A stretch of DNA of 52,384 bases from a virus (taxonomy: Duplodnaviria; Caudoviricetes). Position 1 is the stretch's first letter. Each line of letters begins with the position of its first letter. The stretch is from the IMG/VR virus record IMGVR_UViG_3300044998_000632, positions 1-52,384 of that record; one strand, written 5' to 3'. Shown here in pieces: positions 36,184-51,617 of the stretch. The translations under genes and the position numbers were made by a program. Below the pieces are notes generated by a model. That model saw nothing but the letters and a program-made list of their open reading frames with translations, was not told the DNA's origin and did not search any database.

Positions 36184-36350
36184 CGCTGGATGACGCTGCG
36201 AAGTTCTCCGTGGCGCTCGCCAAGTTCGTAGAACGCCTCACACAGCCGCGCCTCGTAGTTCTCAGCGGTCTCGTTCTCCCCCTTCGGGTTGTGGCGCTTC
36301 CACTGTTGGATGGCGTACAGCAGTTCAGTCAGTGAAAAGGATGTGCTCAT
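36180..36350 (-). CDS. 56-aa hypothetical protein (not in ORF track)
   Basis: RBS GAGGA, translation MSTSFSLTELLYAIQQWKRH...RSVIQR*, and ATGA overlap with the helicase start. Confidence 0.6.
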   Translation of the reverse strand: MSTSFSLTELLYAIQQWKRHNPKGENETAENYEARLCEAFYELGERHGELRSVIQR

Positions 36351-36370
36351 GGGTTCCTCAGTTGATTGAT

Positions 36371-36391
36371 GGGGTCACCGTGACCCCGTGA
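36371..36391. repeat. Palindrome copy 1 (partial left arm)
   Basis: GGGGTCAC-C-GTGACCCCGTGA. Confidence 0.9.
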
Positions 36392-36394
36392 AAG

Positions 36395-36676
36395 CTACTT
36401 CTTCGGTGCGTTGAGCTTCACGCTCCTGTCAGAGTTGCGATGGAAAGACCTGTTCTTCGACGGAGACGTCAGGGACAGGTTGGACCGGGCGTTCGTCCCG
36501 CCCTTGGACAGCGGTACCTTGTGGTCGATGTCCTTGCCGGTGCGGTCCACACCCGCCCGGTCAAACATGTCTCGGGCGCGTTCACGCTCCCGGCGAGCCG
36601 GAGCCTCGTTGCGCTTGAGTTGAAGCTGGTACTCCCGCTTGTACGGGCGATCCCGTTTCGGATTCTTGTACGCCAT
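36395..36676 (-). CDS. HNH endonuclease-like protein
   Basis: GKDIDHKVPLSKGGTN-RSNL...NRS. Confidence 0.8.
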   Translation of the reverse strand: MAYKNPKRDRPYKREYQLQLKRNEAPARRERERARDMFDRAGVDRTGKDIDHKVPLSKGGTNARSNLSLTSPSKNRSFHRNSDRSVKLNAPKK

Positions 36677-36781
36677 AAACGTGCTCCAGGAGGGAGAGCA
36701 ATTTTTGAGCGTCTTCCACCGGGAGCGCAAGCACGGCGTAATCCCTGTACGCCCCGGAGATGGCTTCCTGAAGGCGGCTGA

Positions 36782-37468
36782 TCAGAAGGTCCATGATGGA
36801 TGCGACATGCAGTGGGTGACGGGACAGAACTTGCACAGCCCGCTTGGGTTGGCGGGCCACTCAGACCGTTCACGGGCTCGACGGAGTTGATCCAGCTCTG
36901 CATGCCAGCGCAACCACAGGTGTTTGGCATCCTTGCGATGGAACTCCTGGGTGAAGCTGGCTTCGCTGCCGGGCTTGGTGAACAGCAGCATGGCCGTGAC
37001 GATGTCGACGTCGGGCTCGTGAGAGAACGTCGCCAGCGCGTACACCTCAAGCTGATCCATGTCTGCGTACTTCGGGTTGCCGGTCTTGAAGTCGCCAACC
37101 AGCGCGCGGCGCTTGTCCGCCTGCACGACCATGACGTCTGCGAACGCCTTGAACCAGACATGCGGGTGTCCTGCGTTGCACGCGGTGTAGTCGGACAGCA
37201 GGGACAGATCTCGCTCGGCGTACAGCGTGCCGGGGATGGACCGCAATCCGTCGAGCAAAGGAGTGATGTACTCGAACTCCGGGGGCAGGGGCGCGGTACC
37301 GAGGAGGTACCGCTCGGCTGCTTCGTGCAGCAGCGTGCCGTACGTGGTGTGCTCGCTGGGGCCGTCAACCACGGAGCGGACCTCACGGGTCTCGTAGAAC
37401 CGTTTGGGACAGTTCTTGAATGTCTTCAGGGATGAGAACGACCAGTGAATGGGCGCGCTAGATGACAT
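36782..37468 (-). CDS. PD-(D/E)XK (Cas4/RecB-like) exonuclease
   Basis: WSFSSLKTFKNCP, GT-LH, AD..GDFKTG, QL-VYA and CKFCPV-HC. Confidence 0.85.
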   Translation of the reverse strand: MSSSAPIHWSFSSLKTFKNCPKRFYETREVRSVVDGPSEHTTYGTLLHEAAERYLLGTAPLPPEFEYITPLLDGLRSIPGTLYAERDLSLLSDYTACNAGHPHVWFKAFADVMVVQADKRRALVGDFKTGNPKYADMDQLEVYALATFSHEPDVDIVTAMLLFTKPGSEASFTQEFHRKDAKHLWLRWHAELDQLRRARERSEWPANPSGLCKFCPVTHCMSHPSWTF

Positions 37469-39363
37469 CAGGCTTCTCCGTAACTTGCCCCCGCGCCGAT
37501 GTCGCACTTCAGCGGCATCGCTCCGAGCCACTCGGGCGCGGTGAGCATTGCTTTGCGCCCGAAGTCTACTGCTTCCTCGCGGTCACGTTCCGGCGCGATG
37601 AAAGCGATTTCGTCGTAGGTTGACGTCACGACCTCGTAGCGCTGAGCGATCTTGACCTTCTGCCACATCACGACATCACGCGCGATTGCCTGAATGAGGT
37701 TCTCCGTGAAGAGCCCCGGATGCACAAACACGCGGCGCGTGGCGCGGCGCTGCTTGCGCTCGTAGACGAACGCTGCCTGCGACTCGTCCGACCCCGGGCG
37801 TTTCACCATCTCCACGTGCAGTCCTGGGTAGCGCAAGAACCGACCCGAAGGAAGGCGCACGGTTTTCTCGTCCGCGTCCGACTGCAGCCAATCGCCGCGA
37901 CCGAAATGGAAGGACTGCCCCGTCACCATGCCTTGCAATACCAGTTTCGCGACCTTCCAGAAGTTGGCGATGAACGGGTAGCGAGCGCGGTACGCAGTGA
38001 TCACCTGCTGCGCCTCTTCCGTGGTCAGCATGAGCCCCGCTTCGATCCGCACGTACTCGCGAAAGCGCGCTGCGCCCATCATGAAACCACAGCCGAGCAC
38101 GGCGCTCTTGGCCACCTGTCGCTGCCGGGCGTCAACGGCATCGAGATCCACATGGTAGATGCTCTCGGCGGCGAACTCACGGTACACGTCACGCCCCGCA
38201 GCGAACGCAGCGATGAGGTCGTCCTGCCCTGCGTTCCATGCATTCAAGCGTGCTTCGATCTGCCCGGAGTCTCCCGCGACCACGACGTAACCGGGCGGGG
38301 CACGCAAGGCTTTCTTCAGCACGGGTTCACGCTTGCGCGCCGACAGGTTGAGCACGTTCATGGACATCGTGCCGGTCCCGCGACCGGTGTGCGCTCCGTG
38401 GTAGCGCTGGGGCATCGGCATCAAGCCGCCCATGCGCTTGGCGGTGTCGAGGAACCGATGCGTGCGCGTCAGTTCGATGGTCGACTTGACCCCAAGGCGC
38501 GCGGCCGCGAGCGCGGCAACATCCTCATCGTCGTGTTCCAGCAACTCCTTCATGCCTTGGTCTGACTTCGCGAAGGCGTAGATGAGCTTCTCTGGATGCG
38601 TCGGGCTTGGCTTGGTCGGCGGATCGACGCCGAGTCCACGCAGTAGCTCGGCAAACCGATCCGACGAAGACAGGTCTTCCGATTTGACCCCGAGCGCCGC
38701 CAGCCGCGTCTCGCCCTCGGACTCCAACCGTGCTGCGTACTGCGTCAGCAGGTCTTCATCGAGCACGAGGCGTGGACGGGCCAAGCACTTCGTCAGCAGG
38801 TCCATGATCCTCCACTCAATTGGCGGCACGCCCTCGGCCATCCGCATGAGCAGGTCATAGCATCGGTCAACGTCATTGAGGCAGTACGCTCCGTAGCGCG
38901 CCAGCCCAGCCGCATCGAAATCGATGCGACGCTTGCCCTTGGCGTAAATGACTTCGTCCCCTTTCGGAGGCAGGCCGAAGTGGGTACACAGCGCGGCCAA
39001 GGAACCCCCAGCAAGGTCGGACAGACCGCGCAGGCGCGCAAGCTGCAAGGTACAGATGTACTGCTTGGGCACCAGCCCCAGCCGCCAGATGATGAGCGCG
39101 TCGAACTCGCTCATGTTGTGGCCGGCAGCCGCAAGTTGACTGATCCCCGCATCAGTCAAGCATGCAGCGTACTCCTGCTCCGACGCGAACGAGTACCACT
39201 GCGCAAGGTAGTCGTCGCGCTTGATGCCGACCCCGATGATCTCGAAGCGAGGATCGAAGACGTACTCGATCGCGGACATCCGCGACAGGCTGTACTCATC
39301 GTCGTAGTAGGTCTCGAAGTCAATCGTCAGGATTCCCATTGGTTCCTTCTTTCCTGCGAACAA
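37468..39363 (-). CDS. DNA polymerase family A with 3'-5' exonuclease domain
   Basis: TIDFET, HN-EFD, motif A DSGQIEAR, motif B RQVAKSAVLGCGF, ENLIQAIARD and motif C TYDE. Confidence 0.9.
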   Translation of the reverse strand: MFAGKKEPMGILTIDFETYYDDEYSLSRMSAIEYVFDPRFEIIGVGIKRDDYLAQWYSFASEQEYAACLTDAGISQLAAAGHNMSEFDALIIWRLGLVPKQYICTLQLARLRGLSDLAGGSLAALCTHFGLPPKGDEVIYAKGKRRIDFDAAGLARYGAYCLNDVDRCYDLLMRMAEGVPPIEWRIMDLLTKCLARPRLVLDEDLLTQYAARLESEGETRLAALGVKSEDLSSSDRFAELLRGLGVDPPTKPSPTHPEKLIYAFAKSDQGMKELLEHDDEDVAALAAARLGVKSTIELTRTHRFLDTAKRMGGLMPMPQRYHGAHTGRGTGTMSMNVLNLSARKREPVLKKALRAPPGYVVVAGDSGQIEARLNAWNAGQDDLIAAFAAGRDVYREFAAESIYHVDLDAVDARQRQVAKSAVLGCGFMMGAARFREYVRIEAGLMLTTEEAQQVITAYRARYPFIANFWKVAKLVLQGMVTGQSFHFGRGDWLQSDADEKTVRLPSGRFLRYPGLHVEMVKRPGSDESQAAFVYERKQRRATRRVFVHPGLFTENLIQAIARDVVMWQKVKIAQRYEVVTSTYDEIAFIAPERDREEAVDFGRKAMLTAPEWLGAMPLKCDIGAGASYGEA

Positions 39364-39449
39364 GCTGGACCGTCACGGTCCGTTCACGAAAACTCGCCGA
39401 GGATGTAGTCCCACGGTCCCTCGCCGTGCCGGCGCCGCTTAAGCTGGCG

Positions 39450-39998
39450 TTAGGCCGCTTCAAAATTTTGCCTTGCGGTCGCCAGCGTGATGTCGCCTTT
39501 GCCATTGTGGTACACGCAGCAGTCGTCGGGCCACCCGAGGTCTTCGCTGCCGCTGCCAACTGCAACCGTCGGCTCCTCCCAGCGCTCAATCTCGCGCACA
39601 AGTTTTTCGGCAGCATCTTGGCTTTCGGCCAGCACGTAGCCCGCGCGCACCACCGGCTCGCCCAGGAACGTCGGCGAATCGCTGGCCGATCGGCAGGTGA
39701 TGGAGATGGGCGGTAGGGCGCGCGTGCCATAGATTGCGTTAGGCTCACGAAAACGCAGCGTCCGCTCGCCCGTTCGATCCATCTCCACCAAGCCATTGCG
39801 CAACAGCCACGCAATCACCTTGCTCGGGTCGAAGTAGTAGGTTCGTTCCACGATCCCCGCGCGCTCTATCTCGTTCAGCAGCTCACCGCGAGGAAAGCCG
39901 CGCGGCAATCCGCCCTTTGGCACTGTCAGCACCACGCCGACAGTCCCTGGCTCGGCCAGTGCGCGGACCGCTGTGGCGGCAAGTTCAAGCGGTTTCAT
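39450..39998 (-). CDS. Hypothetical protein
   Basis: ORF on the coding strand of the early region; RBS GGAG upstream. Confidence 0.45.
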   Translation of the reverse strand: MKPLELAATAVRALAEPGTVGVVLTVPKGGLPRGFPRGELLNEIERAGIVERTYYFDPSKVIAWLLRNGLVEMDRTGERTLRFREPNAIYGTRALPPISITCRSASDSPTFLGEPVVRAGYVLAESQDAAEKLVREIERWEEPTVAVGSGSEDLGWPDDCCVYHNGKGDITLATARQNFEAA

Positions 39999-40016
39999 CG
40001 CATCTCCATCGTGAGC

Positions 40017-40322
40017 CTAACTGTCGCTTGCAGCGGACGGCCTTCGGTCGCCGCTGAAGCTGGCGTTGTGCCGCTTCATTGCTTCGTCAACTGCGTCGCG
40101 CAACGTGCGGCCCGTGATCGGCCGGCCGGTCAGCGTGTCATGCCACACCTGCACAAGGTTGTCCGGGTCAGCAACCATGTCCACGAACAAGGCTTTCTCC
40201 GCGAGCCACCGGAACCGCCGTGCGTCGTCGATGCAGTCGCGCAGGATTTGCGCGTGCTCGCCGTGTCCGTCCTGCGCAAGTCTGCGCGCCAACTTCATCA
40301 GCTCGTGGGCGTTGGCGTTCAT
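40017..40322 (-). CDS. Hypothetical phage protein (DARRFRWL motif)
   Basis: D-RR-RWL and LRDAVDEAM motifs are common in small phage early proteins; ATGA coupling. Confidence 0.55.
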   Translation of the reverse strand: MNANAHELMKLARRLAQDGHGEHAQILRDCIDDARRFRWLAEKALFVDMVADPDNLVQVWHDTLTGRPITGRTLRDAVDEAMKRHNASFSGDRRPSAASDS

Positions 40323-40444
40323 CTCCATCCTCCGTTCCCCTTCATCGCGTGCCACATCAACCACGTCAGCACTCCCAGCGCCATCAACGCCGGAATCGCC
40401 GCTATCGCCAGCAGCACGTACAACAGGTTCAATAAGCAGTCCAT
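40319..40444 (-). CDS. 41-aa transmembrane peptide (not in ORF track)
   Basis: MDCLLNLLYVLLAIAAIPALMALGVLTWLMWHAMKGNGGWR, with RBS GAGGTG. Confidence 0.55.
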   Translation of the reverse strand: MDCLLNLLYVLLAIAAIPALMALGVLTWLMWHAMKGNGGWR

Positions 40445-40537
40445 ACGTCACCTCGTCGCTCTGCACGCGAGAGGCGTGCGCCCATGTGGCCAAAACGGAT
40501 CGCGCTGTAAAGCGCATCTTTCCGCCTACCATCTCCG

Positions 40538-40879
40538 TTACTCTCGTTGCAGTGATGCTTCTCGGCACGCGCGGCGGTACTCATCGAGCAGCGCGTGGCC
40601 ATCTTCCCACGTCCCGGGCCGGTCAAGCAGGGCGCACTCCAGCATGATCGCCAGGCGGTGCGCGTAGGCGCTGCCGACCTCGTGAAGGGCGAGGGCTTCG
40701 CGCAGCTCGGCGATCTCTTGCTCGGCTTCCGCAAGGCGATCGTCGTCGCCACGGCATGATGCAAAGCCGCGCGCCACTGCAAGCTCGCGCTCCACGAATC
40801 CGCCGCCGCTGGTCGGACTGCTGCTGCGCACTTCGGCGCATGGGGCCATTACCGGGGGCTGGCGCGAGGTGGCGCTCAT
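40538..40879 (-). CDS. Hypothetical protein
   Basis: ATGA-coupled ORF. Confidence 0.5.
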   Translation of the reverse strand: MSATSRQPPVMAPCAEVRSSSPTSGGGFVERELAVARGFASCRGDDDRLAEAEQEIAELREALALHEVGSAYAHRLAIMLECALLDRPGTWEDGHALLDEYRRACREASLQRE

Positions 40880-41283
40880 GGCTTCGCCTCGCGCAGCGCC
40901 TGCCGCAGGCGTTCAGCCGCCTTCTGGTGCCGCTCTAGCGCGGCCGCCATCGCCGCCTGCGTGTCCAGGCGGTGCTGGCCCCACTGCGCTTTTCGCTCAG
41001 CCAACAGCTCGGCGCTGTCCTCCAGGCAGTACTCCAAGGCTTCCAAGACGGCTTTGAGTTCACCGTCGTCGGCCATGGCAGCGGCAATCGCCGCTTCCAG
41101 GTCGGAGATGGTGTCATGCGAAAGGGTGCGTAACGCCTCGCCGCACTGGCAGCAGTACCTTGCATTGCGCTGCACGTCTGCGCCGCACCGAGGGCAGTTC
41201 ATGCCGCCGTTATCCGTCACGCTCCACCCGCGCTCGGCCAGCACGGCTGCAGCGCGACGGGCACGATCCGTAGGTTCAGTCAT
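40876..41283 (-). CDS. Zinc-ribbon protein
   Basis: CPRCG...YCCQCG. Confidence 0.6.
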   Translation of the reverse strand: MTEPTDRARRAAAVLAERGWSVTDNGGMNCPRCGADVQRNARYCCQCGEALRTLSHDTISDLEAAIAAAMADDGELKAVLEALEYCLEDSAELLAERKAQWGQHRLDTQAAMAAALERHQKAAERLRQALREAKP

Positions 41284-41522
41284 GTTCTGCTCCGCTTCGG
41301 CCACCAATCAGCCCGTTCGCGCCACTGAATCGTGTCCTGCCGCGCATTGGCGGCACGCAACGACGCCCACTGTGCGGCTTCATCGGCCGGGTTGTGAGCG
41401 AAAGCACATACGCTCCATCCACGTTCGCGGCTGTACCACCGCAAGGAGTACGTCCCTACAGGCCACCATCCCTCCGATGGCGGCGGCCCGCTCCGCAGCG
41501 GTCCTTTTCCGATGTCTTTCAT
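41280..41522 (-). CDS. Trp-rich hypothetical protein
   Basis: SGPPPSEGWWP..LRWY..GWS..IQWR, with RBS AAGGAG. Confidence 0.55.
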   Translation of the reverse strand: MKDIGKGPLRSGPPPSEGWWPVGTYSLRWYSRERGWSVCAFAHNPADEAAQWASLRAANARQDTIQWRERADWWPKRSRT

Positions 41523-41527
41523 ATGCC

Positions 41528-41806
41528 CTACTCCTTGCAGTCTTGTGGCGCCATGCGCACGATATTCGGGCCAGCACCGTAGACGTTGACGAGCCGTCCT
41601 TGTCTTTCGATCCGCTTGCTCAGCAGGCCGGCCAGCACCGCCAGTTCCAGAATCGCGGTCACGCTCTGGCGAGCGATGTCGAATTTGATGGTGATGTCCG
41701 CAGACGTCAGTTCTTCGTCCGGGTTCTCGGCAAAGAACCGGCAGACGTGCAGTGGGATACCGCGTGGCACGTACTCCTCGATTGGCTTGATGCGTGGTCT
41801 TGGCAT
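41528..41806 (-). CDS. Winged-helix-like DNA-binding protein
   Basis: FFAENPDEELTSADITIKFDIARQSVTAILELAVLAGLL..VYGAG. Confidence 0.55.
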   Translation of the reverse strand: MPRPRIKPIEEYVPRGIPLHVCRFFAENPDEELTSADITIKFDIARQSVTAILELAVLAGLLSKRIERQGRLVNVYGAGPNIVRMAPQDCKE

Positions 41807-41821
41807 TTTTGGTCAGGTCCC

Positions 41822-42079
41822 CTATAAAACTACGAACGTCATCAGTAGCGCCAGGAACGACGCCACGGCGGCCAAGAAGGCCACTGCCGCCGCGGCCATC
41901 GCCATGTCGACGATGGTCCAAGTGCGTTCGAGCCGCGCTCGCTCGGCCGCAGTCAGTTGCGGCCGAGCCGGACAGACACGGCCCTGCAGGCAGTTGCCAT
42001 TGCACGGTGGGCACTGCAGGGTGTCCAGGTCGCCCGGTGCCGTCTCCATGGCATCAGGGCGGGTGTTGCGCCACGTCAT
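41822..42079 (-). CDS. Small Cys-rich membrane protein
   Basis: CPPCNGNCLQGRVCPAR plus a C-terminal TM segment. Confidence 0.55.
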   Translation of the reverse strand: MTWRNTRPDAMETAPGDLDTLQCPPCNGNCLQGRVCPARPQLTAAERARLERTWTIVDMAMAAAAVAFLAAVASFLALLMTFVVL

Positions 42080-42264
42080 AGCAACGCCTCCGCCCAAGCC
42101 CGACGCGCCTCGTCGGCGGCGCGCTTCAAGCGCTCGCGCTCAAGGCGCTCCAGCGCGCGGCGCTGCTCCTCAAGGCGCCGCATCTGCAGGTCGGTCAAGG
42201 TGCCGAACGGCCATCCGTCCGGGGTTGTGTCGTCGCGAATGCCGTTGGGGCTGTAGCCGGTCAT
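42076..42264 (-). CDS. Hypothetical protein
   Basis: WPFGTLT motif, coiled coil and ATGA coupling. Confidence 0.5.
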   Translation of the reverse strand: MTGYSPNGIRDDTTPDGWPFGTLTDLQMRRLEEQRRALERLERERLKRAADEARRAWAEALL

Positions 42265-42476
42265 ACGGCCTCCTTCCCCGCACGCTGCGACGCCACGGCG
42301 GCAGTCAGGCTGGCGATCAATCGCTCGGCCTGCTCGATCGACAGCATGGCCCGCAGGCCGCCGCCCTCGACGTCCAACGCGATCCACACCTGTCGGTGGC
42401 CTTCGTCCCGGTCGAGGGTGTAGACCAACACCGTCGGGCCGAACTGGGACTCGATTTTCGGGAAGTTGTTGAGCAA
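42261..42476 (-). CDS. Hypothetical protein (probable TTG start)
   Basis: RBS AAAGGAGAG just upstream of TTG at 42476. Confidence 0.45.
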   Translation of the reverse strand: MLNNFPKIESQFGPTVLVYTLDRDEGHRQVWIALDVEGGGLRAMLSIEQAERLIASLTAAVASQRAGKEAV

Positions 42477-42492
42477 GATGACTCTCCTTTGA

Positions 42493-42864
42493 TCAAACCG
42501 CCGGCACAAATCCGGCGTGACGGAATACGGCAATCTTCCGAACTGATCCGTCCGGCTGCGTCTGTTCCTCCGTCTCGCGGACGGAGAACGCAAACAGCGG
42601 TTCGACGCCTCGCTGCCGCAACGCAGCGGCAAGCGGTGCCATCAACCAAGGCGCTCCGCCGATCATCGCGCGCTTGATTCTTACGGCCGCCGCCACCTCC
42701 GCGATCTGCTCGGCGCGGTCGCGGATCGTCTCCGGGCTGGGGAGATCGAAGAACGTCAACAGCGTTTGCAGCTCGGCTTGAGCTTCATCGGACGGGTCAA
42801 TGACCCCCGCAGCCAGTTGTTCTGCGGTTGCGGCGTGTTGGGTGAGGTTGAGGATCCGAATCAT
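42493..42864 (-). CDS. Csx20-like CARF-related protein; candidate viral ring nuclease
   Basis: ILNLTQH-AT-EQ..GV-D..ELQ-L..AMIGG..G-EPLFAFS-R..E..DG..K..F-H-GF parallels the Csx20 motif order as recalled; no search was run. Confidence 0.6.
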   Translation of the reverse strand: MIRILNLTQHAATAEQLAAGVIDPSDEAQAELQTLLTFFDLPSPETIRDRAEQIAEVAAAVRIKRAMIGGAPWLMAPLAAALRQRGVEPLFAFSVRETEEQTQPDGSVRKIAVFRHAGFVPAV

Positions 42865-42898
42865 TCGTCGTTACTTTCTTCTCTCTTAGATTGAGGAA

Positions 42899-42925
42899 AT
42901 CACGGGGTCACCGTGACCCCGTGAT
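42899..42925. repeat. Palindrome copy 2
   Basis: ATCACGGGGTCAC-C-GTGACCCCGTGAT. Confidence 0.95.
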
Positions 42926-42928
42926 AGA

Positions 42929-43213
42929 TTACTTGGCCATGCGACGCTTGATGCTGTCCATCGTTCGGACAGCGTTGGCGATCCGCTCGTCGGGGATGCG
43001 CTTGCTCAAGCGAGTGAGCATGCGGTGGATGCTGAACGCGATGTCCTCCCAGCCCGAGAGCTGGGCTTCGTAGCGGAACTCCGCTTCGAGCTGCTCGCGT
43101 ATCAGCGCCTGCCGGTCCACGAGGAGCTGTGCAATGGCCGCCGCGGCTTCATGGGCCAGCGGGTCGTCTATGCGCAACAAGGTTGCGAGGACCCGGTCAG
43201 GATCGACCGACAT
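42929..43213 (-). CDS. Hypothetical helical protein
   Basis: ORF tiles after the stop at 43218; the start choice is uncertain. Confidence 0.5.
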   Translation of the reverse strand: MSVDPDRVLATLLRIDDPLAHEAAAAIAQLLVDRQALIREQLEAEFRYEAQLSGWEDIAFSIHRMLTRLSKRIPDERIANAVRTMDSIKRRMAK

Positions 43214-43217
43214 CGCA

Positions 43218-43472
43218 CTACTCGGATGGGTCAAGGGCAACCGATTGACGCCCGACAGCGCGGGCGGGAGCGGGTGCCTTGGGGGTTTCGGCGACTTGCT
43301 TGGCTTCTTGCGCGACATTGGCTCCTTCCTGATGATCTTCGTAGGGGTTGATGCCGAGCAGCCGGCAAACGTGCTCGCACGCGCCGCCGATCTCCCCGGT
43401 CGGGGGTACGTCGTCGCGGTCGAGCCCCAACGCGTTGCGAATGCCGTTGTACACGGCTTGCATCTTCTGCAT
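43218..43472 (-). CDS. Hypothetical protein
   Basis: TAATG coupling and RBS CAGGAG. Confidence 0.5.
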   Translation of the reverse strand: MQKMQAVYNGIRNALGLDRDDVPPTGEIGGACEHVCRLLGINPYEDHQEGANVAQEAKQVAETPKAPAPARAVGRQSVALDPSE

Positions 43473-43702
43473 TACGTTCTCCTGAACAGTCCAGCCAGCC
43501 AGTTGATGAACCGCGGCACCGCAGGCTGGCGATTGCGGCGCGGCAGGAGCAGCGCACGCTGCACCGCGTGTTCGTCTGCATCCATGGGGGCGCACCGCGC
43601 GGCGAACGTCCGATCGTCGTTGCGACGCTCGTACCACGCGGGTTCGAACCTACACCCGATGCGCACCGGCACCAAGGGCTTCACTTCTCCGTGAGCAGGC
43701 AT
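43472..43702 (-). CDS. Hypothetical protein
   Basis: RBS AAGGA; tiles with its neighbours. Confidence 0.5.
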   Translation of the reverse strand: MPAHGEVKPLVPVRIGCRFEPAWYERRNDDRTFAARCAPMDADEHAVQRALLLPRRNRQPAVPRFINWLAGLFRRT

Positions 43703-44016
43703 GGGGATTCCTTCAGCTCGTTGTCAATCTGATCGAGCAGTCGCCCGACCTCCGTGACCTTGGCCAGCCCGCACACGACCAAGGCGTCTCCCTTGGCTGC
43801 GCGGATGGCCGCGATCTCACGGTCCTGCAGCGCCGTCGTGGTGTTGCCTTCAGCCTTGCATTCGATGCCGATGAAGCGGCCGCGATAGCAGACGAGGAAA
43901 TCCGGCACCCCGCTACGACCGTATCCAGCGGTGGCCGGGTAGCAGTACCACGCATTGCGGGCTGTCAGCACGGCGGCTACAGCGTTCTTCACACGCCGTT
44001 CGGGAGTGATGCTCAT
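43681..44016 (-). CDS. VRR-NUC domain nuclease/resolvase
   Basis: TPE-RVK, GYGRSGVPDFL, FIGIECKA and TALQ. Confidence 0.85.
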   Translation of the reverse strand: MSITPERRVKNAVAAVLTARNAWYCYPATAGYGRSGVPDFLVCYRGRFIGIECKAEGNTTTALQDREIAAIRAAKGDALVVCGLAKVTEVGRLLDQIDNELKESPCLLTEK

Positions 44017-44603
44017 GCGGCCCTCCAGATGTAGAAGCCCGTACCCTGCGGCCCACGTTCGACATGTCGCTGGACGATCCGTGCGTCCGGACCGGCAACC
44101 TCCCGCAATGTCGCTTGCAACCCAGCGAGCCCGGTACCACTGACGCGAGGCTTTCCAACGAACACTGCGTCACCTACCTGCATGCATGCTGCAATCTCCC
44201 TCAACTGTTTGGAAAAGACGTTGCTGCGCGTGGCGGGCGGGATCGGGAAGTTCTTGATAAGCGTGAGGCTTGTCGGGCGGCCCTGCTTCGGCGGGGGTGT
44301 GGCCGGCACGTTGCTGGACTGCCGGCTCAACGCGGCTTCCTGCAACGTCTCGTTCGCGGCGTAGAAGTAGCCGTACCGGGTCGTAGTCCCCGGGATCCTG
44401 AGGTGTACTCGTCCGATCACTCCGCGCTGAAGCGCGGATTGCAGCACGACGTGCGGGTTGTAATTCGGCGGCAGGCTCAGCGCCTTCCACTCCGGCGAGG
44501 CCGCGATCTCCGACCACGGGATGGGCATTGAACGGTCCCGCCGCGACAGCACGGTCAGGATGGCGTTCTCGACGAGGGCGGCGGTGCGAATAGGTTGGTT
44601 CAT
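44013..44603 (-). CDS. Hypothetical, possibly DNA-binding protein
   Basis: IKNFPIPP..MQVGDAVFV..G-YIWR C-terminal domain; RBS GGAG. Confidence 0.55.
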   Translation of the reverse strand: MNQPIRTAALVENAILTVLSRRDRSMPIPWSEIAASPEWKALSLPPNYNPHVVLQSALQRGVIGRVHLRIPGTTTRYGYFYAANETLQEAALSRQSSNVPATPPPKQGRPTSLTLIKNFPIPPATRSNVFSKQLREIAACMQVGDAVFVGKPRVSGTGLAGLQATLREVAGPDARIVQRHVERGPQGTGFYIWRAA

Positions 44604-44622
44604 ATTGGCTGACTCCAGTAGG

Positions 44623-44964
44623 TCAGGGATTGGCGATATAGAACACGCGAGTTGCAACGATCCGGTCCGACGCGTCGCGTTCCGCGCTGGCTCCGTGCGA
44701 GACGATGACGTCGTCGCGGTGGATGTCGTGGGCCTGCATCGCCTCGGCAACGACAGGGTCTACGAGGTACAGCGTGTTCGCCTCCGGTGGAGGGAGTTCC
44801 GGACGGGCGTAATCCCGCTTGGCAATGGTGGCGTCTCCGATGAACTTGCCCGTGGGAGCAAGTTGTCGGTCACCGATAAGCCGCCACCCAGAAGGGCGGA
44901 TCGTCTCCAACTTCTCGCCATTGCGAAAGGCAATGGTGATGCCGGTTAGATTGATGATGTTCAT
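44623..44964 (-). CDS. Crn4/Unk01-like protein lacking the NLTPH histidine
   Basis: IINLT..I..I-PSG...Y..LPPP..NTLYLV..VA-A..R-D..V....RD...I pattern as recalled for this family; reads NLTGI instead of NLTPH. Confidence 0.5.
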   Translation of the reverse strand: MNIINLTGITIAFRNGEKLETIRPSGWRLIGDRQLAPTGKFIGDATIAKRDYARPELPPPEANTLYLVDPVVAEAMQAHDIHRDDVIVSHGASAERDASDRIVATRVFYIANP

Positions 44965-44965
44965 G

Positions 44966-45985
44966 TCAGTGTGCTTTCATGATGTTGCGAAGTTCCTGGA
45001 CCTCGGCGCTACCAGTTTCCTCGTCCGCGCCGTCGAGCGGGTCCTGCGCATTGTCGGCGCTGAGCGTATACCATTCGAGCAGGTCATCGAAGTCGCACAT
45101 GCCGGCTTCCAGGTACTCAATCGTCGCCGTCAACTCCACGAGTGCCTCGTCCGCAGACAGGTGTAACACCGGCAAGATGTCGAGCAATTCTTCCTCGGTG
45201 GCGTAGACCTGCAAGAAGCGACGCGCGGACGCATCCCCGTGCCGGCTGTAGTCCTCCACGAGGTCGAACAACTCCACGAGCTTCGCTGCCAGCTCCGTGT
45301 GGGCGCGGAACGAGTCACCCACGGCGTCGACGTCGGTCACGACGTTTTTCTTAGGCGGCGTCCATGACGGGAAGCCGGGTTCGTCGCTCCAATCGTGGAA
45401 GCTCATCCGACCCGAGCCGTACACACCCCACAGATGCGGAGTCCATGCGTAGGTGTTGCTGAACCAGCAACCGGGGAACATATCCGTCGTGACGCCAGCG
45501 CTCTCGTTGACCAACAGCAAGCCGTGCTCGGCGTGGATGAAGATGAAACGGTTCTGGCGGCCGATGTGTTCGCCGATCATCTGCCGGACCAACGGCTCAT
45601 GCACCACCGGTGCGACCGCCACTCCGTAGGTGCGGGCGTAGATCTGTGTGTCGGACTCCTTGGTGGTGTCGCCGCCAATCGACAGCACGCCGTTGTGCAT
45701 GAGGTAGAGCTTGCCGTCGTGAATGGCGTAGGGATGCACGCGCTCCAGGTCGACCGCGCCGTGCGTGCGCATGCGCCAGTGCAGTGCGTACTCGACCCCC
45801 CGCGGAGCGTGCTCCAGCCACCACAGACGGGCGGCGGCCGCATCGGCCGGCAGCGTCTTCTCGACGATGATCGTGCCGTCCTTCACGTAAGCGATGCCGA
45901 GACCGTCGGGGTTTTTGCGGAAGCAGTCCTCGAACCAGTCGGCAGGAAAGACGGTATCGGGGGCGACTTTGACGAGCAAACACAT
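44966..45985 (-). CDS. Class-II (Ntn) glutamine amidotransferase, copy 2
   Basis: Cys2 (MCLLV), NPDGLG, HWRMRTHG, VHPY, MHNGVL, SDT and WFSN. Confidence 0.85.
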   Translation of the reverse strand: MCLLVKVAPDTVFPADWFEDCFRKNPDGLGIAYVKDGTIIVEKTLPADAAAARLWWLEHAPRGVEYALHWRMRTHGAVDLERVHPYAIHDGKLYLMHNGVLSIGGDTTKESDTQIYARTYGVAVAPVVHEPLVRQMIGEHIGRQNRFIFIHAEHGLLLVNESAGVTTDMFPGCWFSNTYAWTPHLWGVYGSGRMSFHDWSDEPGFPSWTPPKKNVVTDVDAVGDSFRAHTELAAKLVELFDLVEDYSRHGDASARRFLQVYATEEELLDILPVLHLSADEALVELTATIEYLEAGMCDFDDLLEWYTLSADNAQDPLDGADEETGSAEVQELRNIMKAH

Positions 45986-46009
45986 GATCGATTCTCCTTC
46001 TTGGTTGAG

Positions 46010-47509
46010 TCAGTTGCAGAATTGGAACTCGCGCCGAGCGTTGTAGGCGAGTTTGGCGAGGTCGGGAACTACTGGTACGAGTCGCGACTGCACGGGGCGC
46101 GCAGTCAACAGCCGCCGCAGTGCGGCCGTGCAAGTGCGGTCCATGTCCATGACGTGCGAGACGAACTGCGACATCGTGGGCTCGGACAGCAGTACGTCGG
46201 TGGAGCGGACGCGGAAGAAATCCACCAGCGCATGAATGAACTGGAACTGAGCCAGTGCCCCGATGAACCGCGGCTGCGCGATGGGGCGGCGCCACTCATA
46301 AGTGGCGGCGCCTCGCTCCAGCCGCGAAAGGTTGACTTCATAGTACCGGGTCAGGTTCGACGTGAGGCTGCCGAGACCCGCGCGCCTGACCAGCTCCCCC
46401 CACGGAAGCGAGAACTGTGGCGGCATCTTGTGGCAGTAGCGGGTGTTGGGACGCCCTGCCACAACGGCGTGTACCTCGGTATTACGAGCAAGGAACGCGG
46501 CCAGCAACGCGGCATACATCAGGTCCGGGATGCGACCGTACTCGCCGATGTGAACGTGCATGCCGGCACGGCGCGACCTTCGCCATGCGATTCGCGGCGC
46601 GTACACCCGACGCATGGCGTCCACCACGTCCTCGTATGCACCGAAGCCGGTGACGACCTCGAATCCTTCATTGATGGACCCATCGCGCTCGATATTGATC
46701 TTCTCCTTCGCGTTCATCTTCACCCAGGTGAGCGCCACGTCCCGGGACAGTGCTCGCGATGGCAGAAGCTCCAACTCGACGCCGAACGTAGGCCCCTTGT
46801 AGTTGGGGTCGCGCAGCCCCACGAGATCGCAATAGCCGGACCGTTGGGTTGAATGGTACTCGTTGCACCGCAGGGTGTTGAGCATCCAAGTCACCCTATC
46901 AGGCGCTCGCGGGAAGTGGGAGATCGCGAGCGGGTCCAGGTCACGCACCGTGACGCACTCGCCATCGGATGACACCATAACTGCAGTCGCGCCGCCTGCC
47001 TGCCTGCGAATCCACTGGCGCTTTTGGCCCGGCATTTCTATGGGCACGAACTCCTTCAACATGCATCGCACACACTTGGCGTGCCTCACGCCGCTCGTGT
47101 CGCAGTGCAAATGTCCGTCGGCGTACTCCAGATGTCCGCACGCGGCACGGGAGTAGGAGCGGCTGAACACGTGGTACGCGGCGCCGGAAAACGCCATGAT
47201 GTCGTCCTCGGACGCCGCGGAGGAGTCCAGCCGCGGCCGCGTCAAAAGCGCTGCCACGGATTCAATATCCGGCATTCCGGGCCGTGAGAGCCGAACCAGA
47301 TGTGCCCGCATCGCCGCGGTGTACGCCCGTACGTTGCGCAGCTTACGGAGCTCGCTGAACGACCGGTAGGTGCCGTCGCGGCTCGTGCGCTCATTGGCGC
47401 GCATCTGCTGTCGAATGCACTCCCGGGCCAACCCCACGCCACCGACGGCGAACGTGTGCATCAGAGGCGTCCGGGGATGCCGGCTCGGAGAACTGTAGTT
47501 GAATGGCAT
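46010..47509 (-). CDS. Putative amidoligase (COOH-NH2 ligase, GS/GCS2-like fold), copy 2
   Basis: EYHS, FGVELE, ERDGSI..GFEVVT, AGMHVHI, RYYEVN and TYEWR. Confidence 0.8.
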   Translation of the reverse strand: MPFNYSSPSRHPRTPLMHTFAVGGVGLARECIRQQMRANERTSRDGTYRSFSELRKLRNVRAYTAAMRAHLVRLSRPGMPDIESVAALLTRPRLDSSAASEDDIMAFSGAAYHVFSRSYSRAACGHLEYADGHLHCDTSGVRHAKCVRCMLKEFVPIEMPGQKRQWIRRQAGGATAVMVSSDGECVTVRDLDPLAISHFPRAPDRVTWMLNTLRCNEYHSTQRSGYCDLVGLRDPNYKGPTFGVELELLPSRALSRDVALTWVKMNAKEKINIERDGSINEGFEVVTGFGAYEDVVDAMRRVYAPRIAWRRSRRAGMHVHIGEYGRIPDLMYAALLAAFLARNTEVHAVVAGRPNTRYCHKMPPQFSLPWGELVRRAGLGSLTSNLTRYYEVNLSRLERGAATYEWRRPIAQPRFIGALAQFQFIHALVDFFRVRSTDVLLSEPTMSQFVSHVMDMDRTCTAALRRLLTARPVQSRLVPVVPDLAKLAYNARREFQFCN

Positions 47510-47535
47510 AGGTTGCTCCTTGTAGGTTCAATTGA

Positions 47536-48723
47536 TCAAACACCGGCCGGGGTGTCGGCCACGAGGCACAGATCATGCACCCGCTTCTCTGCGGCCTCCA
47601 GTTCACTTGCGAGCGCGACTGCGCTCGTGAACATGTTCCACTTGCGCTGAACACCGCACAGGGCTTCGTGGAAATCCAGGATCGCTTTCTTGCGCTTGTC
47701 CGTCGTCATGCTCTGAAGGCTGTCGGTGAAGGCGATCACATCCTGCGGTAACGCGCCACTCCACCCCACTGTGGCCAGCAGCAACGTGGACACCGTCCAC
47801 AGATGAGATGGTGCGGTCGTCATCGGCAGCAACTCGACATGGCGCATCAGTGTCTTGACCGCAGAGGCCAGGTCGGCAGGCAGGTGACTCGCCCAGGTGT
47901 AGTTGCGCGGGATGTAGATCATCTCCTTTCCGGTAAGCCCGCGAAACTCCAAGATGCGCAGATCACCGAACTGCGAAGAGTGCGAAAGCTCCCCGAAGGG
48001 CGCAGTCGAAGGCGCAGTCGAAGGCGCAGTCGAAGGCGCAGTCGAAGGCGCAGTCGAAGGCGCAGTCGAAGGCGCAGTCGAAGGCGCAGTCGAAGGCGCA
48101 GTCGGACGCGGGAATGACGTGTATCCCCACGTCGGCCGCGCAAACTCGGGCAGCGAAGGCCACAACGTGTGGTCGGTCACCGCGTAGTTGTTGGACAGCA
48201 GCATGCCGTCGCACTCGAACCAATCCTTGCGGTTGAGCACGTGGAAATGCTTGCGCCCGGCATCGAGGAGCAGGATGCGGTTCTCGCCGATCGCCCGCTC
48301 GATGAACTTGATGACCCCGCTGCACTCCAGCGCATCGGGGCGCATCTGGTCGAGCAAGTCGGCCAGCAGGCGCGTATCACTGGAACCGCGCCTGAGGTCG
48401 GCATCCACCAGCCGGGACGGCAAGGTTCCGTTGTGCATCATGGCGAATCGCGTGCCGAACGCGAAGGGATGCACATTGGCGAGGCTGCGCGACCCCCTCG
48501 TCACGCGGCGGAAGTGCAGCGCATAGGGCGTGTCGCTGGGCCGCCACCGCTCGATGAACTTCACCACGTTGGAGGGCTTCGTCGCCAGCGTGCGAGCCGT
48601 CACCGGCGTGCCGTCGTCGCTGGCAAACATGATCCCCGTGCCGTCGGGGTTGTACTTCATGGCGTCGGTGATCTGCTCTGGAGTGAGCCTCCTGCCGGCG
48701 GGGATGTGGATGATCAAGCACAT
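47536..48723 (-). CDS. Class-II (Ntn) glutamine amidotransferase, copy 1
   Basis: MCLII, NPDGTG, HFRRVTRG, NVHPF, MHNG, SDT and LSN. Confidence 0.85.
   Translation of the reverse strand: MCLIIHIPAGRRLTPEQITDAMKYNPDGTGIMFASDDGTPVTARTLATKPSNVVKFIERWRPSDTPYALHFRRVTRGSRSLANVHPFAFGTRFAMMHNGTLPSRLVDADLRRGSSDTRLLADLLDQMRPDALECSGVIKFIERAIGENRILLLDAGRKHFHVLNRKDWFECDGMLLSNNYAVTDHTLWPSLPEFARPTWGYTSFPRPTAPSTAPSTAPSTAPSTAPSTAPSTAPSTAPSTAPFGELSHSSQFGDLRILEFRGLTGKEMIYIPRNYTWASHLPADLASAVKTLMRHVELLPMTTAPSHLWTVSTLLLATVGWSGALPQDVIAFTDSLQSMTTDKRKKAILDFHEALCGVQRKWNMFTSAVALASELEAAEKRVHDLCLVADTPAGV
47999..48104. repeat. 12-bp perfect tandem repeat (GGCGCAGTCGAA, ~9 units) encoding (TAPS)n
   Basis: Seen directly in the sequence. 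Confidence 0.95.
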
Positions 48724-48765
48724 GTTCACTTTCCTTTCGTTGGTGAGTTGGTTGATGGAACGGTT

Positions 48766-48790
48766 TCACGGGGTCACGGTGACCCCGTGA
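48766..48790. repeat. Palindrome copy 3
   Basis: TCACGGGGTCAC-G-GTGACCCCGTGA. Confidence 0.95.
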
Positions 48791-48793
48791 CTG

Positions 48794-50452
48794 CTACGCC
48801 CTGGCATACGCCTGCTGGGCTTGCGCCTTGCGCATCTCGGCATTGCGCAACTCACGCAGGCGGGGGGCGAACGCCAGCGACTCGGGATGGTCGACGATGT
48901 AGTGTCGCAGCGTCTTCGTGTTGCGCCGCAGGTACGGATCATCAACCAGCGCGTTAGCGAACCCGCTCGCCGTGAGCGGGTTGCACGCGACGGGGTCGCA
49001 ATACTTGGTCAGCGCCCACACCAGTTCAAGTCGCGCCTTGATGCGCCGCGACCGTCCCGTGCCGGCGAAGATGCGCCACTCGATCGACCCATCACGGCGG
49101 ACATTGATCGCGTTGTAGCGATCGACCGGGCTGCCGAACTGCCGCTTCCAGGCGTCCTTGAGCACCTTGCGCGCCGCGTGCCCGCACAGCGGGTTGCGTG
49201 CATACGAGTTGAACCCGCGGCCGAACAGCGGGCGCAGGAAGGGATAGTTCTCCCCGGCGCAGACGGCTCCGAAGAGCCGCTCAATGTGCGCCTCAGGCAG
49301 GCTGCTCGTGCTGATGTGCAACCCGCAATGGTCGGTGTTGTATCTGTAGTCCCGGACGATGCCGCCGAGCCTGTCCGCCCAGTTACGCACCGTGCCAAGC
49401 GTGGACCACCCGGTGATGATCTCTACTCCGTTGTGCTCGTCCAGCGAGGCGTCCTGTTCGAGTACGACGACCGAAGACAAGTCGTCCGAGTCCATGACAT
49501 CGTCCACGAACGAACTGCGCCCCTCGACGTTGAGTTCGCACTCGAAACCGAGGGTGAGCGTATCCACTTGCAGCGGGTCGTCGTAGTGCGACGCGTGACG
49601 CCGGACGGCCAGTTGCCGCTGACGGCTCCCGCTGTGGTACTCGTACAACTGCGGGTGCCCCGTGCCGTCCTCGTCCTCGTCTCCGTCCTCGTCTCCGTCC
49701 TCGTCTCCGTCGGGGTAGATGTCTTCGAGGGAGTCGAGGGCGGGGTCGAAGTAGCTGTCCGAGCGGACGTCGTACCGCAGCGCGTTCATCGCGAACTCTC
49801 GCGACGCGATCGTGGTGCCGTAGAACTCGATCGTGCGCTCCCCGATCAACGAACTCACCTGCCACACGGACTGGCTCTGCCACCGCGTGACGGGAAGCCC
49901 GCCGATGCAGCCCACTGCGACGAGACACGCGCCGTACTTCGGGATCACCCGGAGTTCGACCTCGCACGTCACGTACTTGTCCCCGAACGCAGCGAGCAGG
50001 CGAGAGCCCAGGCAGGACTGGGGAGTGATGAACCGCGTCTTCAGGAGGTGGTTCACTGCCGGCTGGCATTCCGACAGGTCGAGATCGAATCGGTTGCTCC
50101 CCGCCCAACGACCGATGTCCCGGAACTCCCGCCGGTAGCCGATCGGCCGCGTCCGGGCAGGGGTGTTGACCGTGTCGGTCGCGATGTCGCGGCCGACTGC
50201 GAGCATGTTGCTCGCGAAGTTCACGACGCGGCCGACTGCGAGCATGTTGCTCGCGAAGTTCACGACGCGGCACATGCGGTCGAAACTTTTCCAGTCGCCA
50301 TCCAGCGTGACGACGTACGGTGCGGCGGTCTCGACCACCCGGACGGTGGGGTCGCGGCGCACGAGCACCGCCGCGGCCTGATGGAAGTAGTTGAGCACGC
50401 GAGCGTGCAGCCACGAGCACACGCCCGAGTTGAAGTTGAAAGTGATACGCAT
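48794..50452 (-). CDS. Putative amidoligase, copy 1
   Basis: EYHS, LGFECE, EQDASL..GVEIIT, CGLHIS, RYNAIN and SIEWRIF. A (GGAAA)n purine tract precedes ATG 50452. Confidence 0.8.
   Translation of the reverse strand: MRITFNFNSGVCSWLHARVLNYFHQAAAVLVRRDPTVRVVETAAPYVVTLDGDWKSFDRMCRVVNFASNMLAVGRVVNFASNMLAVGRDIATDTVNTPARTRPIGYRREFRDIGRWAGSNRFDLDLSECQPAVNHLLKTRFITPQSCLGSRLLAAFGDKYVTCEVELRVIPKYGACLVAVGCIGGLPVTRWQSQSVWQVSSLIGERTIEFYGTTIASREFAMNALRYDVRSDSYFDPALDSLEDIYPDGDEDGDEDGDEDEDGTGHPQLYEYHSGSRQRQLAVRRHASHYDDPLQVDTLTLGFECELNVEGRSSFVDDVMDSDDLSSVVVLEQDASLDEHNGVEIITGWSTLGTVRNWADRLGGIVRDYRYNTDHCGLHISTSSLPEAHIERLFGAVCAGENYPFLRPLFGRGFNSYARNPLCGHAARKVLKDAWKRQFGSPVDRYNAINVRRDGSIEWRIFAGTGRSRRIKARLELVWALTKYCDPVACNPLTASGFANALVDDPYLRRNTKTLRHYIVDHPESLAFAPRLRELRNAEMRKAQAQQAYARA
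50188..50270. repeat. Exact 39-bp in-frame tandem duplication (RVVNFASNMLAVG x2)
   Basis: Seen directly in the sequence. Confidence 0.95.
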
Positions 50453-50493
50453 GATTCTTCCTTTCCTTTCCTTTCCTTGGTTGGAACCGCGTG

Positions 50494-50518
50494 TCACGGG
50501 GTCACGGTGACCCCGTGA
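50494..50518. repeat. Palindrome copy 4
   Basis: TCACGGGGTCAC-G-GTGACCCCGTGA; supplies the TGA stop of ORF 50502-50714. Confidence 0.95.
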
Positions 50519-50913: not shown

Positions 50914-50947
50914 GATCTTCCTTTCGTTGGTTGGTGAGTTGAGGGAT

Positions 50948-50974
50948 TTCACGGGGTCACGGTGACCCCGTGAA
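50948..50974. repeat. Palindrome copy 5
   Basis: TTCACGGGGTCAC-G-GTGACCCCGTGAA. Confidence 0.95.
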
Positions 50975-51582: not shown

Positions 51583-51585
51583 GCG

Positions 51586-51610: not shown

Positions 51611-51617
51611 ACTACGT

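Follow-up and report, generated by a model that had tools for sequence, protein, structure and literature searches.

The window analysed here is the whole of IMG/VR virus record IMGVR_UViG_3300044998_000632 (Duplodnaviria; Caudoviricetes), a linear sequence of 52,384 nucleotides (nt) that is estimated to be 83% complete and contains DNA polymerase, helicase, primase, capsid, tail and lysis genes. Our subject is one gene on its minus strand, at 42493-42864, which starts with ATG and encodes a protein of 123 amino acids, here called the target. Profile matches place the target in the Csx20/MJ1673 family. We think it probable that it is a homodimeric ring nuclease for cyclic tetra-adenylate (cA4), made early in infection to blunt type III CRISPR signalling; its substrate, its catalysis, the roles of its residues and its anti-CRISPR effect are what we infer.

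The gene is real. Its open reading frame (ORF) is the sole stop-free frame among the six, and the G+C contents of the three codon positions are 0.70/0.48/0.72. The ATG is the right start, because the N-terminus of the product aligns with the N-termini of its homologues. An initial annotation of the window, made by a model from the letters alone, had placed a 123-amino-acid protein at this position, and our analysis found the ORF there, on the minus strand with an ATG start. When the target was compared with the protein database, 1700 of 1848 candidates matched at E ≤ 0.001, and an exhaustive profile search gave 2376 cluster representatives of the family, 678 of them at E ≤ 1e-30.

The initial annotation had also described the motif order of Csx20 in the protein, and every motif that it listed is present. 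In the N-terminal part and the middle these are His10 straight after strand 1 (N-L-T-Q-H), T-A-E-Q16, L-Q-T-L and I68-G-G; P89-L-F-A-F-S-V-R96 and K110...F114-R-H116..F119 follow in the C-terminal part. At most of these positions the 40 aligned homologues do not vary at all. Invariance was seen for N6, L7, T8, Q9, H10, Q16, F38 and P42 in the N-terminal half and for G69, G70, A71, M75, P77, L78, A92, R96, G106, K110, F114, R115, H116 and G118 in the rest of the protein.

Family assignment

The NCBIfam model CAS_Csx20 (NF040559) matched residues 67-119 of the target with E 4.8e-6 and 27 bits (25.9 bits when the whole record was searched), against an equivalog cut-off of 70 bits. All 40 aligned homologues matched the same model, the best of them at E 6.4e-10. 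The PADLOC models for Csx20 gave sub-threshold matches with E 2.4e-6 and 1.3e-3. Pfam family PF27247 (PF27247.1), an assignment precomputed in the protein database, is carried by the target and by 120/120 homologues among those listed; its family name, MJ1673, comes from the ESM Atlas (Pfam 38.1). The ESM Atlas clusters nearest to the target are 67-82% viral. No family for the target was found in PHROGs or in the Pfam copy that we searched, which does not hold the PF27247 model, and no PDB search reached significance (best E 0.48 with the sequence and 1.2 with the profile). In a Pfam scan at E ≤ 10 there was no DUF1874 match, only DUF7526 and DUF6952 far below their cut-offs, which agrees with the remark of the initial annotation that the protein does not look like AcrIII-1.

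A gene in a Helicobacteraceae metagenome-assembled genome (MAG) served as the CRISPR-linked Csx20. It scores 131.7 bits to NF040559 and lies ~6 kb from Cas10, and the adjoining 415-amino-acid protein is read as CARF-HEPN-like from its sequence. All 15 of the 15 database homologues of this Csx20 carry PF27247. The alignment of phage-type sequences was compared by hhalign with an alignment of 14 CRISPR-linked Csx20 sequences, and the two matched with 90.8% probability and E 1.2e-6 over 113 columns, residues 3-121 against 3-122, which is the full length. When the 40 phage-type and the 14 CRISPR-type sequences were aligned jointly (54 in all), both groups agreed on one residue at ≥ 90% in 13 columns: L7, H10, Q16, P42, G70, A71, M75, A92, R96, G106, F114, H116 and F119. 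His10, Gln16, Arg96/98 and His116/117 each reach 100% in the phage-type and in the CRISPR-type group. The same Helicobacteraceae MAG also contains a phage-type csx20 copy on another contig, and the two genes form a natural pair for comparing both branches.

MJ_1673 is described as a protein of ~130 amino acids associated with the type III-A systems of Methanococcales (PMC3973734). In the M. jannaschii control genome NF040559 gave a match above its cut-off, which may be this protein.

These comparisons support membership of the target in the Csx20/MJ1673 family in the broad sense. Because its score is 27 bits where the equivalog cut-off is 70, we place it in a divergent sister group; by sequence it is a member of a divergent, mainly phage branch of Csx20/MJ1673 and no equivalog of CRISPR-encoded Csx20. 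The initial annotation had assigned the protein to the Csx20 family and had proposed a profile comparison as a check. The broad assignment holds with NF040559, PADLOC, PF27247 and the full-length hhalign match, and an assignment to Csx20 in the equivalog sense does not.

What the relatives do is known from CRISPR loci. One purified CRISPR-encoded Csx20 fully degrades cA4, as followed by high-performance liquid chromatography, and degrades cyclic tri-adenylate (cA3) at a tenfold higher enzyme concentration (PMC12409355, Hoikkala et al. 2025). According to that study, Csx20 is the commonest stand-alone ring nuclease of type III loci, with 78 loci in ~38,700 genomes, the effectors to which it is linked all depend on cA4, Csx1 being the foremost, and it was found in 4/28,114 phage genomes (PMC12409355).

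Predicted fold and homodimer

AlphaFold2, run with the 40-sequence alignment, gave a model of the target with a pLDDT of 95.6. The predicted order of elements is strand-helix-helix-helix-strand-helix-strand-strand, a mixed alpha/beta, Rossmann-like arrangement. Foldseek found no match to this model in the PDB at E ≤ 0.001. In the ranking below that level, Cam1 with cA4 stood at 3-4 and the ring nuclease Sso2081 at 16, and no match stood out. The VIA wide structure search and the VIA second look gave generic Rossmann-like matches, with CARF/SAVED chains in 8 of the 50 rows of the wide search and none standing out, and a search of BFVD gave three uncharacterised viral look-alikes only. The initial annotation had proposed a structural comparison with CARF-like ring nucleases, and its outcome speaks neither for nor against a CARF relationship: CARF and SAVED chains are among the matches, but none of them rises above the generic Rossmann folds.

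As the initial annotation had also suggested, the target was co-folded as a dimer, with adenosine monophosphate (AMP) ligands in place of cA4. A homodimer was predicted with an ipSAE of 0.81, against 0.00 for the best of three controls. Three dimer runs agreed in at least 96% of contacts, and the pLDDT of the partner was at least 90. The calibration mark was reached by 20/30 proteins solved as pairs and by 1/23 solved as single chains, counts that serve only as a rough guide here, since a custom alignment and two AMP ligands were used. The predicted interface is made up of the invariant central block M-I-G-G-A-x-W-L-M-A-P-L (residues 68-79), residues 38-47 and 91-95, and the C-terminal strand.

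Tandem fusions and the putative active site

We surveyed 148 of the 150 listed top representatives of the family for fusions; the other two were part of the query alignment. Two or three copies in one chain were found in 20 of the 148, which fits a dimeric working unit. When 38 long or fused members of the family were searched with Pfam, a single protein had an extra domain (DUF4116) and the other 37 had none, so that the fusions give no functional hint beyond the tandem repeats themselves.

Among the 128 single-domain proteins the putative active-site residues are almost always kept (His10 in 128, Gln16 in 128, Arg96 in 127, Lys110 in 127 and His116 in 126). The 17 full tandems differ in this respect from residue to residue: both halves keep His10 in 4/17, Lys110 in 7/17, Arg96 in 12/17, His116 in 13/17 and Gln16 in 16/17. 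His10 is present in only one half in 12/17, and at least one His10 remains in 16/17. When one His10 and one Lys110 are both lost, the two losses lie in opposite halves (six tandems) and in no case in the same half. The remaining tandems comprise six that lose one His10 only, three that lose one Lys110 only, one that is intact and one that has lost all four residues. Since the losses of His10 and Lys110 fall in opposite halves, we infer that the dimer may have two composite catalytic centres, to each of which one subunit contributes His10 and the other Lys110, and that one centre may be enough. We take this as a lead and not as proof.

The same residues bear on whether the protein cuts its ligand at all. 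Like Csx15, the target might bind a cyclic signal without efficient turnover and act as a sponge, which we consider improbable. Csx15, a predicted ring nuclease of the same broad class, has been described as a good cA4 binder and a very slow nuclease (PMC13148439), and the proposed Lys110 is absent from the active CRISPR Csx20. However, His10, Gln16, Arg96 and His116 are common to the active CRISPR enzymes and are found in 126-128 of the 128 single-domain proteins, and the retention of at least one His10 in 16 of the 17 tandems suggests selection for one working catalytic centre, not for mere binding. It has also been argued in the Csx15 study that sponging suits type III systems poorly, as much signal is made (PMC13148439).

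Distribution and the link to type III CRISPR

The family looks mainly viral, and the capture by a virus that the initial annotation suggested is one of two possible directions of transfer between phages and CRISPR loci. In IMG/VR, 158 of 178 pattern-matched stretches encode a relative of the target. Cultured phages searched by tblastn gave matches in Pasteurella phage Pm86 (45.9% identity), Rhodothermus phage RM378 (41.9%) and Fusobacterium phage JD-Fnp4 (30%). The three frames are annotated as hypothetical or are unannotated, as that of Pm86 is. The Pm86 match covers the C-terminal half only (66 residues) and lies at the end of a linear record, and the Csx20 model matched RM378 and JD-Fnp4 over the full length with E 8.2e-8 and E 1.1e-10. 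In Pm86, a 71-amino-acid ORF overlaps the end of the Csx20-like fragment and may be the published Aca14 regulator.

The surroundings of the gene are not conserved. For none of the 13 neighbours of the target in the window was a homologue found next to the csx20-like gene in 80 viral loci, and no unrelated neighbour family recurs in more than 5/80 of these loci, as would be expected of a mobile accessory gene.

Among species-representative genomes, the phage-type gene was found at 33 loci in 31 genomes from very different phyla. Each carrier genome was searched once for Cas10, and two loci on second contigs of the same MAGs were dropped. Cas10 was found above its cut-off in 8/31 carriers, four with the Csm1 type and the four others with the Cmr2 type. 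The Cas10-positive carriers include three of the five with a copy at least 57% identical to the target, namely Thauera, a gammaproteobacterial MAG and Rhodoferax. As a base rate, Cmr2 was present in 12/101 genomes of the family to which the Thauera MAG belongs, counting the MAG itself; the enrichment of Cas10 among carriers is modest and the base rate a rough one. None of the four Csm1-positive carriers has the phage-type gene close to cas10, the two being on different contigs or ~1 Mb apart, and the Thauera MAG has Cmr2 and the phage-type gene on separate contigs.

These figures leave room for a different substrate or a different opponent. The target could act mainly on other signalling defences, such as CBASS (antiphage systems that signal through cyclic oligonucleotides) with cA3 or related rings, or minimal Cas10-like polymerase systems, or it could have a broad substrate range and counter signalling defences in general, with no special bearing on type III CRISPR; we judge this unlikely, though less so than the sponge. 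No Cas10 was found in 23/31 carriers, all the small Patescibacteria-type genomes included, and the 2376 clusters of the family far exceed the 78 Csx20-bearing type III loci reported, in the same study in which CRISPR Csx20 also cut cA3 at high enzyme (PMC12409355). On the other hand, the characterised members of the family in that study are all CRISPR-linked and prefer cA4 (PMC12409355), and Cas10 is enriched among the carriers, in 8/31 compared with 12/101 in one host family. In addition, the phage of the window has a homologue of Crn4, a second type III accessory family (see below), and a missing Cas10 can be explained by the incompleteness of MAGs.

A Crn4-like gene upstream of the target

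An ORF of 113 amino acids lies at 44623-44964 on the minus strand, 1.76 kb upstream of the target, and is a Crn4 (Unk01)-like gene. The PADLOC model Unk_01, labelled 'unknown small protein, sometimes fused to CARF', matched it at E 3.9e-7, with residues 1-110 aligned to positions 1-100 of 103. In the PADLOC search no other ORF of the window matched a further CRISPR-accessory model. Five homologues of the ORF were found in the protein database. Its structural model is of low confidence (pLDDT 67.5), and with this model Foldseek placed Crn4 chains at all of ranks 1-7, the best of them, 9r7b, at E 8.1e-4 with 29% identity over 114 columns; the next family followed at E 0.57. When the profile of the ORF was compared with the PDB, the best match was Crn4b, at E 0.58.

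In the alignment to Crn4b (9r7b_A), I-N-L-T-G-I of the window protein faces I-N-L-T-P-H. The position of the catalytic His of Crn4 is occupied by Ile in the window protein and in all five homologues (6/6). The Arg of an invariant E-R-D in the window protein aligns with the Arg of the R-D motif of Crn4b, which we take to be R103 of the published protein on the assumption that the numbering is offset by one. As both proteins begin with I-N-L-T, the ORF was also considered as a paralogue of the target, and this was rejected with an hhalign probability of 5%.

Unk01 is now known as Crn4, a broad-range ring nuclease with a fold of its own, which has been reported in 11/28,137 phage genomes (PMC12830947). 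The H15A variant of Crn4a had lost all activity and was crystallised with cyclic hexa-adenylate (cA6) bound (PMC12830947). Because that variant is inactive and yet holds cA6, a His-less Crn4-like form could bind without cutting. By analogy, the product of the window ORF is possibly a binder or sponge of cyclic oligoadenylates that does not cleave them.

Of 79 other Csx20-bearing viral records, 50 were examined, and one of the 50 also holds two Crn4-like genes. In this record, a complete IMG/VR phage record of 102.9 kb, the Csx20-like gene and the two Crn4-like genes, 3.2 and 6.9 kb away from it, lie on one strand within 7.5 kb. The Crn4-like pair keeps the His, as T-N-H and T-P-H. Csx20-like and Crn4-like genes may form a recurring anti-type III cluster.

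Genome organization and the early block

On the plus strand of the window, capsid, tail-fibre, endolysin and ejection genes occupy ~0.1 to 28.7 kb, and the early and replication genes are those of the minus strand, between the right end and 28.9 kb. The minus-strand block encodes two Ntn-hydrolase-like proteins, an endonuclease, DNA polymerase A, a PD-(D/E)XK exonuclease, an HNH protein, an SNF2 helicase and a DUF927 primase. The two Ntn-hydrolase-like proteins (47536-48729 and 44966-45985, both minus) are paralogous early proteins that begin with M-C and give weak matches to profiles of class II glutamine amidotransferases (Ntn hydrolases) and to phrog_25883. Cultured phages gave no Megablast match to 36000-52384, and those with the nearest DNA polymerases, at 32-35% identity, infect Rhizobium and Pseudomonas.

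At the end of the plus-strand genes, 21260-28747 encodes a virion protein of 2495 amino acids, with an N-terminal lytic transglycosylase and a C-terminal match to DarB-like antirestriction PHROGs, which is probably an ejected polyvalent protein. It was also considered as an N4-type virion RNA polymerase reading hairpin promoters. This was rejected, as PHROGs recognised only the transglycosylase and DarB-like regions at its ends.

A sigma-70 consensus promoter, TTGACA-17 nt-TATAAT (12/12), lies at 51618-51646 on the minus strand and reads leftwards into the early block with the target. It is the single promoter-like site in 47000-52384, where shuffled sequences gave a mean of 0.9 sites of any quality. 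From the gene order and this promoter, early expression of the target seems likely. PADLOC was run on 29 ORFs of the window and found no core cas gene; it gave the Csx20 matches of the target, a weak LmuB match and the Unk_01/Crn4-like homologue only. The 52.4-kb record therefore shows no linkage of the target to a CRISPR locus, as is expected of a viral copy. The placement of the gene by the initial annotation, in a phage early operon with no cas genes, is supported by the PADLOC result and by the leftward block behind the consensus promoter.

Directly upstream of the target is an ORF of 129 amino acids (42929-43318, minus), for which library scans of Pfam, PHROGs and PADLOC gave no family. 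Downstream, an ORF of 71 amino acids (42261-42476, minus) starts with TTG 17 nt after the stop of the target, behind an AAGGAG-type ribosome site, and is probably co-transcribed with it. Pfam, PHROGs and PADLOC held no family for this ORF, and the ESM Atlas gave no match ≥ 0.9. We considered it as an Aca-type regulator and dropped the idea for want of a family or Atlas match, which does not disprove it.

Between the 129-amino-acid ORF and the target there is a perfect palindrome of 13+1+13 nt (42899-42925), which is separated by 3 nt from the stop of the upstream gene and by 34 nt from the ATG of the target; the initial annotation had noticed a palindrome directly in front of the gene. The window contains five such copies, identical as 25-bp palindromes with 12-nt arms (TCACGGGGTCAC, one base, GTGACCCCGTGA), where 0 would be expected by chance; the centres are at 42912, 48778, 50506, 50961 and 51502. 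The second copy (48765-48791) precedes an Ntn-hydrolase-like gene whose product begins with M-C, the third (50493-50519) a gene for ~550 amino acids of no assigned function, the fourth (50948-50974) a small ORF, and the fifth (51489-51515) lies ~100 nt downstream of the consensus promoter. A minus-strand ATG follows each copy at a distance of ~30-41 nt, and the gap contains a purine-rich ribosome site. The region at 50.5-51.6 kb, within ~1.2 kb downstream of the promoter, contains three of the copies and only small ORFs.

As RNA, the copy at 42899-42925 forms a 12-bp hairpin in a fold of -25.6 kcal/mol. An intrinsic terminator was rejected, as no T run follows the palindrome and the terminator scan made no call, and so was a widespread phage element, as the sequence was found in only one other IMG/VR contig. 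We take the palindromes for regulatory elements in the early transcript, which could be either hairpins that serve in processing or stabilisation between early genes, such as those of the early region of T7, or operators for a dimeric regulator.

The position of the target in this block invites one more explanation, namely that it is a small nucleotide- or RNA-end-processing enzyme of phage nucleic-acid metabolism, which would share only the fold with Csx20 and have no role in defence evasion. The block does lead into replication genes (nuclease, DNA polymerase, exonuclease and helicase), and the fold matches are generic Rossmann-like ones. Nevertheless, we hold this to be quite improbable: the homology is to a specific CRISPR-accessory family and not to a fold alone, the neighbours are not conserved in the 80 viral loci, which sets the gene apart from core replication genes, and the family occurs in unrelated phages of hosts as distant as Rhodothermus, Fusobacterium and Pasteurella. 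Phage csx20 homologues have moreover been found in anti-CRISPR operons under Aca14 control (PMC13551039).

Discussion

Immunity by type III CRISPR relies on cyclic-oligoadenylate signals, and enzymes with which viruses destroy them are effective anti-CRISPRs. To our knowledge, the viral signal-destroying proteins characterised so far are only AcrIII-1 and a viral SAVED protein. We propose that the target would be made early in infection from the leftward early transcript and would form a symmetric homodimer. The dimer would bind cA4 made by the Cas10 of a host type III CRISPR system in two composite sites, in each of which one subunit would supply His10, probably as general acid, and the other Lys110, and Gln16, Ser94, Arg96 and His116 would hold the ligand. 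The ring would be cleaved to linear products, so that cA4-dependent effectors (Csx1, Can1/2, Cam1 and the like) would not be switched on.

Several observations weigh against this proposal. The target falls short of the NF040559 equivalog cut-off, with 27 of the ≥ 70 bits, and BLASTP between the target and the CRISPR-linked Csx20 gave E 0.010 over the C-terminal 50 residues. Lys110 is invariant in the phage branch, and in the joint alignment the CRISPR-linked Csx20 has Thr at this position, so that the chemistry may differ. The six tandems with losses in opposite halves may go back to as few as two events. That 23 of the 31 carriers gave no Cas10 implies that type III may not be the only or the main target, although the small Patescibacteria genomes among them are incomplete MAGs. 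The case for early expression consists of the gene order and one consensus promoter. The nearest cultured phages are distant, with DNA polymerases only 32-35% identical, and in our literature search we found no assay of a phage Csx20.

A phage Csx20 as such is not new, and the initial annotation overstated its novelty: phage copies are already in print (PMC12409355), and phage csx20 homologues have been proposed as counter-defence genes in a 2026 paper in Nucleic Acids Research (PMC13551039). In the latter paper, an operator of Aca14, a ribbon-helix-helix regulator, lies upstream of several phage csx20 homologues, and the csx20-aca14 operon of Pasteurella multocida is autorepressed (PMC13551039). 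For the window alone the result is a modest one: one more phage with a gene whose likely role had been proposed before. What is new in detail is how large the viral branch is, together with the hypothesis of composite sites and the presence of a His-less Crn4-like gene in the same phage.

The phage branch is very large, with 2376 cluster representatives and at least 158 IMG/VR contigs, and if it is active it would be among the commonest viral counter-measures to type III CRISPR. The pattern of the tandem fusions offers a testable model of the active site, with His10 and Lys110 from opposite subunits, and the His-less Crn4-like neighbour suggests that one phage can combine a signal nuclease with a signal binder. 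Taken together, these points allow a wider reading, which we put forward as speculative and on the whole doubtful. The Csx20/MJ1673 fold would be foremost a viral weapon, present in thousands of phage lineages, with the CRISPR branch small and derived; it would work through composite His10/Lys110 sites that tandems have repeatedly reduced to one; and the phage of the window would pair a cA4 nuclease with a His-less, Crn4-like broad-range sponge, both from its earliest transcript. A viral origin with a derived CRISPR branch has reportedly been argued likewise for AcrIII-1/Crn2.

Comparison with known systems

AcrIII-1 is the established viral ring nuclease. AcrIII-1/Crn2 (DUF1874) is a small dimeric viral enzyme that destroys cA4 against type III CRISPR, which is the role proposed for the target, and a general-acid role of a catalytic His is proposed likewise, in the target for His10. 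It belongs to another family, whereas the target is predicted to have a mixed alpha/beta, Rossmann-like fold. Crn1 (Sso2081) and the CARF proteins are small, Rossmann-like, dimeric cA4 binders, and the target is predicted to be so too, but it has no sequence match to any solved chain.

Crn4 is represented in the window by the upstream ORF at 44623-44964. The likeness consists of the full-length match to Unk_01, the top Foldseek chains and the I-N-L-T motif as in Crn4b; the difference is the catalytic His, H15 in Crn4a and H17 in Crn4b, where the ORF has Ile.

The published phage csx20 genes are of the same family as the target, and here too an inverted repeat lies upstream and a 71-amino-acid ORF downstream. 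The details differ from those of the csx20-aca14 operon. The 71-amino-acid ORF of the window has no family match and is unlike a ribbon-helix-helix protein. The Aca14 operator is AT-rich and overlaps a -10 element (PMC13551039), whereas the palindrome of the window is G+C-rich, comes after the stop of the previous gene, and recurs before five early genes, large ones included.

The closest known system is Csx20 itself (NF040559/PF27247). The target is phage-encoded, has no cas genes nearby and scores 27 against 70 bits; its central block reads M-I-G-G-A-x-W-L-M-A-P-L where CRISPR Csx20 has L-L-V-Q-G-D-F-G-A-T-Y, and its clade has an invariant Lys110 in place of Thr. The two share the length class of ~125 amino acids, the order of motifs and a profile-profile match over the full length, and the near-invariant His10, Gln16, Pro42, Gly70-Ala71, Arg96, Gly106, Phe114 and His116 are all present in the target. 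The predicted homodimer of the target also matches the published AlphaFold 3 (AF3) model of the Csx20 dimer (PMC12409355).

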